DNA of 64,000 bases. Origin: Escherichia coli. GTDB taxonomy: Bacteria > Pseudomonadota > Gammaproteobacteria > Enterobacterales > Enterobacteriaceae. Both the position numbers and the translations under genes were made by a program. Shown here piece by piece: positions 21,462-26,055 of this stretch; within the stretch, counting starts at the first letter, position 1; every line of letters starts with the position of its first letter. The stretch lies in NCBI RefSeq assembly GCF_044647545.1, contig NZ_CP172818.1; one strand, 5' to 3'. Below the pieces are notes generated by a model. It saw only the letters and a list, made by a program, of their open reading frames with translations. It made no database searches and was not told the origin of the DNA.

Positions 21462-22703
21462 ATGAACAAAACGCTAATCGCCGCAACTGTGGCAGGGATA
21501 GTTTTACTCGCTTCAAATGCTCAGGCACAAACCGTACCGGAAGGCTATCAGCTACAGCAAGTGCTCATGATGAGCCGCCATAACTTACGTGCGCCGCTGG
21601 CGAACAATGGCAGTGTGCTGGAGCAGTCGACGCCGAATAAATGGCCAGAATGGGACGTCCCCGGTGGGCAACTCACCACCAAAGGTGGCGTGCTCGAAGT
21701 GTATATGGGCCATTACATGCGTGAATGGCTGGCAGAACAGGGGATGGTGAAATCGGGGGAATGCCCGCCGCCGGACACCGTTTATGCCTATGCCAATAGT
21801 CTGCAACGTACCGTTGCGACTGCACAGTTCTTTATTACCGGCGCATTCCCGGGGTGTGATATTCCTGTGCATCACCAGGAAAAAATGGGCACTATGGACC
21901 CAACCTTTAATCCGGTGATCACCGATGATTCCGCCGCATTCAGTGAACAGGCGGTGGCGGCAATGGAGAAAGAGCTCAGCAAACTCCAGCTTACCGACAG
22001 CTACCAGCTACTGGAAAAAATCGTTAACTATAAAGATTCCCCTGCCTGTAAAGAGAAACAACAGTGTTCGCTGGTGGATGGCAAAAATACCTTTAGCGCG
22101 AAGTATCAACAAGAACCAGGTGTTTCCGGGCCGCTGAAAGTCGGCAACTCGCTGGTAGATGCGTTTACTTTGCAATACTACGAAGGTTTTCCGATGGATC
22201 AGGTGGCCTGGGGAGAAATCAAATCTGACCAGCAGTGGAAGGTGTTGTCGAAGCTGAAAAACGGTTACCAGGACAGCCTGTTTACCTCACCGGAAGTGGC
22301 GCGCAATGTTGCGAAACCGCTGGTCAGTTATATCGACAAAGCCCTGGTCACCGATCGCACCAGCGCTCCGAAAATCACGGTGTTAGTTGGGCATGACTCC
22401 AACATTGCCTCTCTGTTAACGGCGCTGGATTTCAAACCGTATCAGTTGCATGACCAGAACGAACGCACGCCGATTGGCGGCAAAATCGTTTTCCAGCGTT
22501 GGCATGACAGCAAAACCAATCGCGACCTGATGAAAATCGAGTATGTGTACCAGAGTGCAGAACAGTTACGTAATGCTGACGCGTTAACCCTTCAGGCACC
22601 TGCGCAGCGCGTGACGCTGGAATTAAGCGGTTGTCCGATAGATACCAACGGTTTCTGCCCAATGGATAAGTTTGATAGCGTGTTGAATGAAGCGGTGAAA
22701 TAA
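21462..22703 (+). CDS. agp: Periplasmic glucose-1-phosphatase
   Basis: 413 aa from [12 protein letters not shown]...; histidine acid phosphatase motif RHNLRAP. Confidence 0.92.
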
Positions 22704-22709
22704 CAGAAA

Positions 22710-22732
22710 ACTCCCCCGTTCGCTACGGGGGA
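22710..22732. terminator. Bidirectional hairpin terminator between agp and yccJ
   Basis: ctcccccgt-tcgct-acgggggag perfect stem. Confidence 0.7.
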
Positions 22733-22740
22733 GTCGCTGG

Positions 22741-22968
22741 TTAAACGTTTTTACGTTCGATGGTCTGTTCGCCCCAAAAAAGCGAATCTTTGTCGGTCTT
22801 AGCAAAGGCTTTGACTAACACTTCATCGCTACCTTCTTCCCAAATCTTTTCCGCCATTTTTTCGTCGTACCCGGCGACTTCGAAAATGGCCTCGGCTATT
22901 TCCGGCGACGTATTGCGCAGAGATGCCCATTCACCGACGTGATGAGCTTTCGCTTCTTGAGTTGGCAT
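22741..22968 (-). CDS. yccJ: Uncharacterised protein YccJ
   Basis: 75-aa [40 protein letters not shown]... Confidence 0.85.
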
Positions 22969-22988
22969 GCGTATCCTCCTGTTGAAGA

Positions 22989-23603
<615 letters not shown>

Positions 23604-23957
23604 TTATCTCTATTCCGTAGCGATTCGCTACCACTTATTTAAAGATAAGACGTCCTTTTCAGAGTGCAAATTTCACAACCACTTATTTGATTTATAACAA
23701 CTTTCACAAGCACGTAATTTTGTCGCAAAATGACACATTTTTATCTCATCGCGTTTTTTTAATCATAAGAGCGGCTTATGGATAATTATTGGAGATGATA
23801 TCTATTCTCGCTAAGAAGCTGTTGCAGGATATTACCAAACGCGGGTCTGCCCACGTCAGTTCACTAAGCTTAGTCCCACGTAGCGAAAATATGGCAGCCG
23901 CCATACGCCGCGTTAATTCTATGCAATATGATGTCTATACCCAGACGGAGGTCAGTA

Positions 23958-24131
23958 ATGGCAAACCATCGAGGCGGTTCCGGCAATTTTGCAGAAGACC
24001 GCGAAAGAGCATCAGAAGCAGGTAAAAAAGGTGGACAGCACAGCGGGGGTAATTTCAAGAATGACCCGCAGCGCGCATCTGAAGCAGGTAAAAAAGGTGG
24101 CAAGAGCAGTCACGGCAAAAGCGACAACTAG
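23958..24131 (+). CDS. ymdF: Stress-induced KGG-repeat protein YmdF
   Basis: 57 aa from MANHRGGSGNF...; duplicated RASEAGKKGG unit. Confidence 0.8.
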   Translation: MANHRGGSGNFAEDRERASEAGKKGGQHSGGNFKNDPQRASEAGKKGGKSSHGKSDN

Positions 24132-24211
24132 CCGGGCTAATCAATGACGAATGCATTTTTTTCTTAAGCTCGTCAAAAAGCCCACCGCCGGTAACCCCGG
24201 CGGTTTTCTGT

Positions 24212-25540
24212 TTATGGCTCCTGATGAATAACTTCTGGCGGTGGAACGTCAACCAACCTTCTGCTTAATAACGCATTGAGTAAAATCGCGCCAAAGGTTG
24301 CTGTACCGATCCCTCCCAACGTAAAACCGCCCAGCGTGAGAGCAAAATCACCCGCGCCCAGCACTAAGGTTACTGCGACCATAATCAAATTACCGTTCTG
24401 GCTTAAATCGACACGGTTTTGTACCCAGATCCTTGCGCCTGCGACGGCAATCAGCCCGAACACAACAATTGATGCACCACCAATCACCGCGGCCGGAATG
24501 GTATGGATCAGCGCGCCAAATTTCGGCGAAAAGCCCAACAGCATGGCGATGACGGCAGCAGCAACAAACACCAGCGTCGAGTAGACTTTGGTCACGGCCA
24601 TCACACCGATATTTTCAGCATAGGTGGTGACGCCGCTACCGCCGACAGAGCCGGAAAGCATCGTTGCCAGACCATCACCGACGAATGCCCGTCCCATATA
24701 CGGATCCATATTGCGTCCGGTCATCCCGGCGACCGCCTTGAGATGGCCTAAGTTTTCCGCCACCAGAATCACCGCCACGGGCGCAATCAGCATCATTGCC
24801 TGACCATTAAAAGCAGGAGTGGAAAAATGTGGCAAACCGAACCAGGCAGCATGGCTGACGAGAGTAAAATCGACGGCTTTTCCCAGCCCTAAAACGTTGG
24901 TCATCACGCCATACAGCAGACAGGCGACAATTAATCCTACGAGAATCAATAACCGCTGGATCATGCCACGGGTAAATACCGCTACCAGCCCAATACACAG
25001 CACCGTCATTACCGCCATCCAGCTATCAAAGGCCGAAGCCGATACACTTTTCACTGCGATAGGCGCTAAGTTCAGGCCAATCGCCATCACCACCGCACCC
25101 GTCACCACCGGCGGCATTAGCCGTTCAATCCAGCGCGTACCGATTTTCATCACCACCAGGCCAATGACGGTATAAACCAGCCCACAGGCGATAATCCCGC
25201 CCAGCGCGATGCTGATATTCGGGTTAATGCCCTGACCGTTAAAGCCCGTCGCGGCAATCACCACGCCGACAAAAGCCGCGCTGGAGCCGAGATAACTGGG
25301 GACGCGCCCGCCGGTAATAAAGAAAAACAGTAACGTGCCGATCCCCGACATCAAAATGGAAAGATTGGGATCCAGCCCCATCAGAATAGGCATTAACACC
25401 GTCGCGCCAAACATCGCCACCGCGTGTTGAACGCCCATTACTGCCGTCTGAGCAAACGGCAATCGTTCATCCGGCGCGACCACGCCGCTCTCTGTAGAGG
25501 TCGATTTTAACTGCCAGTGAGGAAAACCGAACATTGCCAT
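24212..25540 (-). CDS. rutG: Pyrimidine permease RutG (NCS2 family)
   Basis: 442 aa from MAMFGFPHWQLK...; polytopic membrane protein, first gene downstream in the rut cluster. Confidence 0.9.
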   Translation of the reverse strand: MAMFGFPHWQLKSTSTESGVVAPDERLPFAQTAVMGVQHAVAMFGATVLMPILMGLDPNLSILMSGIGTLLFFFITGGRVPSYLGSSAAFVGVVIAATGFNGQGINPNISIALGGIIACGLVYTVIGLVVMKIGTRWIERLMPPVVTGAVVMAIGLNLAPIAVKSVSASAFDSWMAVMTVLCIGLVAVFTRGMIQRLLILVGLIVACLLYGVMTNVLGLGKAVDFTLVSHAAWFGLPHFSTPAFNGQAMMLIAPVAVILVAENLGHLKAVAGMTGRNMDPYMGRAFVGDGLATMLSGSVGGSGVTTYAENIGVMAVTKVYSTLVFVAAAVIAMLLGFSPKFGALIHTIPAAVIGGASIVVFGLIAVAGARIWVQNRVDLSQNGNLIMVAVTLVLGAGDFALTLGGFTLGGIGTATFGAILLNALLSRRLVDVPPPEVIHQEP

Positions 25541-25560
25541 CAGCTGTCTCCTTAAGGAGG

Positions 25561-26055
25561 TTAACAAGCAGGGCGCATCAGCGCGTGATAACTGCGATCA
25601 AACCACACCAGCCCGTAGGGGGTGGCGTGACGATGAATCGCTTCGATGGCGCAAAACAGAATGTCGTGGGTGCCGACGCTCACCACCTGGCTGATACGGC
25701 AGTCAAACGAAACCAGTGCTTCTTCCAGTTGCGGGCATCCGGTCACACCAGTCTGCCAGCGGGCGGCGGCAAAGCGGTGTTCCATGGGCGTTTTGCCGCC
25801 AAAAAGGTTTGAAAGCAGCTCCTGCCCGGCGCTAAGTGTATTTACACACAGCGTTCGATTTTCATTGAATACCGACCAGACGGACGCCCCACGATTCAGG
25901 CACACCAGTAATGTGGGCGGCGTATCGGTCACGCTGCAGACGGCGCTGGCGGTGAACCCGGCGCGCCCGGCTGGACCGTCCGTGGTGATGATATTGACCG
26001 CCGCGCCCATGCAGGACATCGCATCGCGAAAAGTTTGTTGATCGACAATGTTCAT
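25561..26055 (-). CDS. rutF: FMN reductase RutF
   Basis: 164 aa from [14 protein letters not shown]... Confidence 0.88.

Follow-up and report, generated by a model that had tools for sequence, protein, structure and literature searches.

How does a protein of 56 residues, disordered and made of two KGG units, affect biofilm formation, antimicrobial tolerance and growth in acid? This general question does not arise from the DNA analysed here, a stretch of 64,000 nucleotides from Escherichia coli (RefSeq assembly GCF_044647545.1, contig NZ_CP172818.1), which we refer to as the window and which contains the short gene ymdF. Publications already cover this gene and the family to which it belongs, as well as its repeat, its regulation and several phenotypes. 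Our analysis provides an anatomy of the protein that should be useful for the design of unit-deletion, unit-swap and scramble variants, comprising the exact unit boundaries, the predicted helix in each unit, the old and stable two-copy state and the recognition of a 'Walker' motif as spurious. Taken as a whole, the locus is best explained as chromosomal ymdF encoding a two-unit KGG protein, a paralog of YciG, a reading to which we assign a probability of about 0.85; the further step to a hydrophilin-like function is graded separately below.

Identity, start codon and flanks of ymdF

An initial annotation of this DNA had named the gene product YmdF and noted that it contains a KGG-type unit duplicated in tandem, as is typical for the small KGG-repeat proteins induced by stress. 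The name is correct. The encoded protein is 100% identical to YmdF of E. coli K-12 MG1655 (b4518, UniProt P56614), RefSeq annotation agrees, and the ATG at 23958 and the stop codon at 24129-24131 match the RefSeq coding sequence exactly. Because the position agp-yccJ-wrbA-ymdF-rutG is identical as well, the window and K-12 copies are the same gene, differing solely in the downstream spacer. A megablast search found the locus, annotated, in 5417 of 5426 complete E. coli genomes, where RefSeq lists it as ymdF, 'general stress protein' or 'con-10 family general stress protein'. The order wrbA-ymdF-rutG is seen in the window, and the order agp-yccJ-wrbA-ymdF is also kept in Salmonella and Klebsiella. 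Identity to the K-12 protein and the place beside wrbA, which is the same in K-12, Salmonella and Klebsiella, assign the gene to the ymdF orthologous group. The segment 23958-24131 is the E. coli gene ymdF, already known; its features are collected in Table 1.

Table 1. Features of the ymdF locus, with positions in the window
Feature	Position	Strand	Remarks
Candidate promoter-proximal conserved block ATGCAATATGATGTCTA	23921..23941	+	three-species alignment
Candidate -10 element TATGAT	23927-23932	+	inside block ATGCAATATGATGTCTA
Candidate σS-like -10 element TCTATACC	23934-23941	+	inside block ATGCAATATGATGTCTA; C at -13
Shine-Dalgarno sequence GGAGG	23947..23951	+	6 nt 5' of the ATG; seen in the sequence
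ymdF coding sequence	23958..24131	+	57 codons plus stop; ORF list and RefSeq annotation; product MANHRGGSGNFAEDRERASEAGKKGGQHSGGNFKNDPQRASEAGKKGGKSSHGKSDN
KGG unit 1, residues 7-26, GSGNFAEDRERASEAGKKGG	23976..24035	+	unit HMM and Pfam KGG stretch
DNA direct repeat	23982-24043 and 24048-24109 (overall 23982..24109)	+	copies 66 nt apart, 71% identity
Identical 20-nt cores GAAGCAGGTAAAAAAGGTGG	24015-24034 and 24081-24100	+	within the DNA direct repeat
KGG unit 2, residues 29-48, SGGNFKNDPQRASEAGKKGG	24042..24101	+	unit HMM; best Pfam KGG stretch at residues 32-52
C-terminal tail KSSHGKSDN, residues 49-57	24102..24128	+	degenerate, truncated start of a third unit
Intrinsic terminator hairpin, bidirectional	24184..24204	.	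8-bp stem, 7 GC pairs, T-runs on both strands

Three observations fix the translation start. In an alignment of E. coli, Salmonella and Klebsiella, the block GGAGGTCAGTAATG at the Shine-Dalgarno sequence is invariant. An upstream ATG at 23928, which would open a 67-residue reading frame, was rejected, as the frame is broken by a 2-nt indel in Klebsiella. Moreover, the monoisotopic mass computed from the window sequence for YmdF after removal of the initiator Met, 5748.73 Da, equals the mass recorded for the intact protein by top-down mass spectrometry in E. coli BL21 colonies (5748.73 Da; PMC5594050), and only the 57-residue start minus Met fits this value. The annotated start is therefore correct, and the agreement between computed and observed mass shows that YmdF accumulates unmodified.

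Upstream of the Shine-Dalgarno sequence, the conserved block ATGCAATATGATGTCTA is a candidate for the ymdF promoter, an assignment suggested by cross-species conservation and by the putative -10 elements that lie within it. A σ70 promoter scan returned nothing convincing near the ymdF start codon. Farther upstream in the wrbA-ymdF intergenic region, at about 23636-23745, the four blocks TTTAAAGATA, AGAGTGCAAAT, TTTGATTTATAACAA and ACATTTTT do not vary among E. coli, Salmonella and Klebsiella and are probably part of the divergent wrbA promoter or of the sites that regulate it.

On the downstream side, ymdF (+) and rutG (-) are convergent. The hairpin reported by a terminator scan lies 53 nt past the ymdF stop codon and 8 nt past that of rutG (24212-24214), and with this position and T-runs on both strands it is a bidirectional terminator common to the two genes. 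The ymdF-rutG spacer (24132-24211) is 80 nt long in the window and contains this single hairpin, whereas the spacer of K-12 MG1655 is 256 nt long and harbors a REP/BIME-like insert of ~175 nt between two copies of the hairpin. The two strains thus differ by a repetitive extragenic element that one of them has and the other lacks. An Rfam scan of positions 22500-25000 pointed only to the entry sroD at 24140-24209 (+). We rejected this candidate, which scored 20.5 bits (E=0.68) against a gathering score of 50 and overlaps the terminator hairpin; the resemblance is most likely due to chance and driven by the hairpin. For rutG itself, the mechanically called reading frame (24212-25567, minus strand) begins with TTG and spans 451 residues, compared to 1329 nt and 442 residues in RefSeq. 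The longer frame is probably just an in-frame extension upstream.

YmdF consists of two tandem KGG units and a short tail

The YmdF sequence repeats with a period of 22 residues (66 nt). In the best ungapped self-alignment, at an offset of 22, residues 9-35 pair with residues 31-57 and 17 of the 27 positions are identical. The BLOSUM62 score of this alignment, 84, was not reached by any of 3000 composition-preserving shuffles of the protein (mean 30.8, sd 6.0, maximum 73), which places the repeat far beyond chance. Each unit follows the pattern G-N-F-x-x-D-x-x-R-A-S-E-A-G-K-K-G-G, completed by a linker of two to four Gly, Ser or His residues, and the hallmark RASEAGKKGG appears at residues 17-26 and, 22 residues further on, at 39-48. 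The tandem duplication described in the initial annotation is thus real, being evident both in the self-alignment and in two separate stretches matching the Pfam KGG profile (PF10685). The peptides that it had given as the two copies, residues 17-38 and 39-53, are likewise present, but their boundaries are out of phase. By cutting the units at RASEAG, it arrived at one full and one truncated copy and missed the N-terminal GGSGNFAEDRE of unit 1. This segment (residues 6-16) is homologous to SGGNFKNDPQ (residues 29-38), and YmdF therefore holds two complete units. Beyond the second unit, the 22-residue register persists up to the last residue, with QHSGGNFKN pairing with KSSHGKSDN, and this tail varies among orthologs. 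Accordingly, YmdF is composed of two tandem 22-residue KGG units followed by a short degenerate tail.

The profile search confirmed family membership with a wide margin. YmdF matches PF10685, the 'stress-induced bacterial acidophilic repeat motif', with 67 bits (E=1.6e-18; gathering cut-off 20.4). Pfam places the two KGG stretches at about residues 10-30 and 32-52, the latter being the best and spanning profile positions 1-22 of 22, while our own unit HMM delimits the units at 7-26 and 29-48. In keeping with the family, the tandem units carry K-G-G after an R-A-x-E-A-G core. An NCBIfam profile scan of YmdF gave no family match, and a PDB sequence search gave no relative at E≤1. To place the architecture in a wider context, we used an exhaustive phmmer search over 1.84 billion cluster representatives, which returned 639 representatives at E≤1e-3, of which 199 had E≤1e-10. 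A 20-residue unit HMM (consensus SSGNFANDPERASEAGRKGG) was built from these relatives. Among the best 150 of the 639 representatives, 105 proteins have two units, 39 have three, five have one and one has four, and in 128 of 186 intervals one unit starts exactly 22 residues after the preceding one; judged by these unit counts and this spacing, YmdF displays the modal architecture of the family. The core RASEAGKKGG hardly varies across the family: an alignment of 32 sequences has 21 conserved columns, one of them invariant (A21) and 20 at ≥90%.

KGG genes are also found in several copies and on plasmids. The number of KGG loci in E. coli genomes has a median of two and reaches five, and one E. 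coli variant is 60 residues long (P0089). Genes related to ymdF reside on 128 plasmid records, most of which are non-mobilizable; Pantoea accounts for 69 of these records and Escherichia for 13.

Composition and predicted structure

After cleavage of Met, mature YmdF comprises 56 residues and is basic, with a pI of about 9.9. Its 11 Lys and Arg residues against 7 Asp and Glu residues result in a net charge of about +4 at pH 7 and +10 at pH 4.5. Glycine accounts for 12 of 57 residues (21%), and the mean hydropathy (GRAVY) is -1.71. With these values YmdF falls within the compositional definition of hydrophilins, which asks for more than 6% Gly and a hydrophilicity index above 1 (Garay-Arroyo et al. 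2000), and the paralog YciG has been listed among the hydrophilins (PMC5437024). AlphaFold2, run with the 32-sequence alignment, yielded a model of low confidence (mean pLDDT 59.8, pTM 0.26). Only two 10-residue helices were predicted, both at low confidence, at residues 15-24 and 37-46, one per unit; they fall on the conserved RASEAGKK core, with Gly-rich linkers between them. The low confidence of the model is compatible with disorder, though short of proof. It fits the unstructured state in solution attributed to YciG, YmdF and STM14_1829 by Oguri et al. 2019, as cited in PMC7161692.

A protectant or a regulator?

Regulation and phenotypes of the KGG genes have been described in several species. 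Transcript and protein depend on RpoS in Salmonella and in E. coli (PMC7161692, PMC5437024), and RpoS-dependent expression holds for yciG, ymdF and a third Salmonella paralog, whose protein products were distinguished by mass spectrometry (PMC5437024, PMC7161692). Intact YmdF has been detected in E. coli colonies (PMC5594050). Expression of the gene is thereby established from the literature and, together with the PF10685 match, this dependence on RpoS justifies describing YmdF as a typical small stress-induced KGG protein. KGG genes have further been reported to be induced in biofilms (PMC9262955). In S. Typhimurium, the KGG genes are induced by acid. At pH 4.5, growth is normal in single mutants and modestly reduced in the ΔyciG ΔymdF double mutant and in the triple mutant (bioRxiv 10.64898/2026.04.09.717482). 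That the defect in acid appears only in multiple mutants indicates redundancy.

Our tentative view, held at somewhat less than even odds and argued from analogy, is that YmdF acts as a hydrophilin-type, dose-dependent protectant or as a weak multivalent binder. According to this model, YmdF would be an abundant, disordered and positively charged protectant in which each KGG unit contributes a single nascent helix (RASEAGKK) flanked by flexible Gly linkers. The protein could weakly bind or shield many macromolecules in stationary phase, under acid stress and during biofilm growth, and two units should provide more avidity, or a higher dose per molecule, than one. YciG would be partially redundant with YmdF, which might account for the mild stress phenotypes of single mutants.

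Several published observations do not sit easily with bulk protection. The main alternative, which we regard as possible but doubtful, is that YmdF is a specific regulatory adaptor, with each KGG unit serving as a short linear motif that becomes helical upon binding to a defined partner. Examples of such a partner would be a c-di-GMP phosphodiesterase such as PdeH/YhjH or a component that acts upstream of the regulators of biofilm formation. Instead of shielding macromolecules in bulk, σS-induced YmdF would in this case adjust c-di-GMP, motility and biofilm signalling. Biofilms of E. coli BW25113 ΔymdF form a patchy monolayer with about 10-fold fewer cells and are about 100-fold more sensitive to H2O2, sensitivity to tobramycin and ciprofloxacin being increased as well (PMC9262955); a single-mutant phenotype of this strength, in the presence of intact yciG, fits a specific regulatory role better than bulk protection. 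The same holds for the P. aeruginosa ΔsagS signalling mutant, whose biofilm architecture and tolerance are rescued by expression of either PA2146 or YmdF (PMC9262955). The authors of the PA2146 study found no link of PA2146 to a stress other than biofilm growth (PMC9262955), overexpression in UTI89 shifts persister levels in opposite directions depending on the antibiotic (bioRxiv 10.1101/310961), and motility phenotypes vary between Salmonella strains (PMC7161692), all of which argues against a bulk protectant. The adaptor is also favoured by the near-invariant RASEAGKKGG core in the 32 aligned sequences, which exceeds the need of a purely compositional function, and by the single nascent helix predicted for each unit. 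The most direct pointer to a partner comes from a two-hybrid library screen with S. Paratyphi A YhjH, in which YciG was recovered three times, and from an AlphaFold model of the pair that positions YciG at the c-di-GMP site (bioRxiv 10.64898/2026.06.04.730116).

The evidence for an adaptor has to be weighed against three points. First, the YhjH-YciG interaction is allele-specific, as YciG showed no interaction with the S. Typhimurium YhjH allele (bioRxiv 10.64898/2026.06.04.730116), and these data concern YciG rather than YmdF or E. coli. Second, YmdF, PA2146 and three Klebsiella paralogs, for which rescue of the ΔsagS mutant is reported as well, cross-complement between species (PMC9262955); this cross-complementation disfavours a specific, fast-evolving partner. 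Third, the KGG family occurs in very diverse bacteria and, per InterPro, in eukaryotes (PMC5437024), and many of these organisms are without PdeH. A sharper version of the adaptor idea, in which the KGG unit is a linear motif for a dimeric PdeH/YhjH-type c-di-GMP phosphodiesterase and the 22-residue spacing of two units allows bivalent engagement, appears improbable to us. If it were true, YmdF and YciG would not be passive protectants but would modulate c-di-GMP, biofilm and motility signalling under the control of σS.

The duplication predates the split of YmdF and YciG

The repeat could also be read as a recent, slippage-prone 66-nt tandem duplication with a copy number that varies between strains, i.e. 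as a contingency locus. The perfect 20-nt core shared by the DNA copies and the range of one to four units across the family point in this direction. However, the DNA copies are just 71% identical overall, and 5 of the 14 residues that are identical between the two units are encoded by different codons. A comparison with YciG (b1259) is more telling. Between the two paralogs, the first units share 85% and the second units 100% identity, whereas the two units within YmdF share only 70%, and the signatures AEDRE of unit 1 and KNDPQ of unit 2 are common to both paralogs. Because matching units of YmdF and YciG are closer to each other than the units within YmdF, the duplication is not recent and is older than the split of YmdF and YciG. 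The word 'duplication' in the initial annotation stands, although it should not be taken to mean a recent event. Farther out in the family the positional signal is gone, with an identity of 0.64 between units at the same position and 0.65 between units at different positions. Close to YmdF the copy number is nearly constant as well: the 120 closest clusters of proteins come from E. coli, Shigella, Salmonella, Klebsiella, Citrobacter and Enterobacter, and all but one of them (119) have exactly two units. When E. coli genomes were queried with synthetic junctions of one- and three-unit alleles, places covered at 100% were found, and these were formed by joining two partial pieces of the normal allele. 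Given the codon differences, the unit matches with YciG and the near-constant two-unit state of the closest clusters, we rejected a recent or unstable duplication as very improbable.

The Walker A pattern appears to be a compositional accident

According to the Pfam description of the KGG family, KGG is followed by a Walker A motif (quoted in PMC9262955 and repeated in PMC7161692), and PMC9262955 reports a Walker-type motif in YciG alone. YmdF in fact matches the pattern [AG]-x4-G-K-[ST] twice, with AGKKGGKS (residues 43-50) and GKSSHGKS (residues 48-55; together 24084-24122 in the window), and YciG matches it once, with GGNKSGKS. That YmdF binds ATP or GTP through this motif is nevertheless the least credible of the readings considered, and we rejected it: in a protein so rich in Gly, Lys and Ser 5.6% of shuffles produce the pattern, its place is the tail, which is variable (KSSNRNS in Salmonella, KNSHGSRES in Klebsiella), it is carried by only 10 of 147 family representatives, and a genuine P-loop requires a β-strand, loop and helix embedded in the core of a folded NTPase, whereas for YmdF we found no P-loop Pfam family, no PDB relative and no predicted β-strand, at a pTM of 0.26. 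The match would thus be an accident of composition and not a genuine, family-defining feature.

Relation to known systems

A close relative of YmdF in E. coli is its paralog YciG. Like YmdF, YciG has two units at 22-residue spacing and is σS-dependent, and the two proteins share the N-terminus MA(N/E)HRGGSGNF. They differ in the C-terminal tail, which reads QQSGGNKSGKS in YciG and KSSHGKSDN in YmdF, and in gene organization, as yciG is the first gene of the operon yciGFE, which it forms together with yciF and yciE, and ymdF is a monocistronic gene. Within the KGG family at large, where the copy number ranges from one to four units among the representatives, YmdF stands at the common value of two. 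Members of the family include P. aeruginosa PA2146 and Salmonella STM14_1829/SEN1538, and the family also takes in B. subtilis GsiB and Neurospora con-10.

Outside the KGG family, the systems to compare are the hydrophilins and LEA-type small disordered protectants, such as yeast Hsp12 and A. baumannii DtpA and DtpB. YmdF has no sequence relationship with the LEA families, as Pfam finds KGG alone. The likeness is one of composition, YmdF likewise being small, disordered and stress-induced, and by this analogy a hydrophilin-type protectant is most plausibly what YmdF works like.
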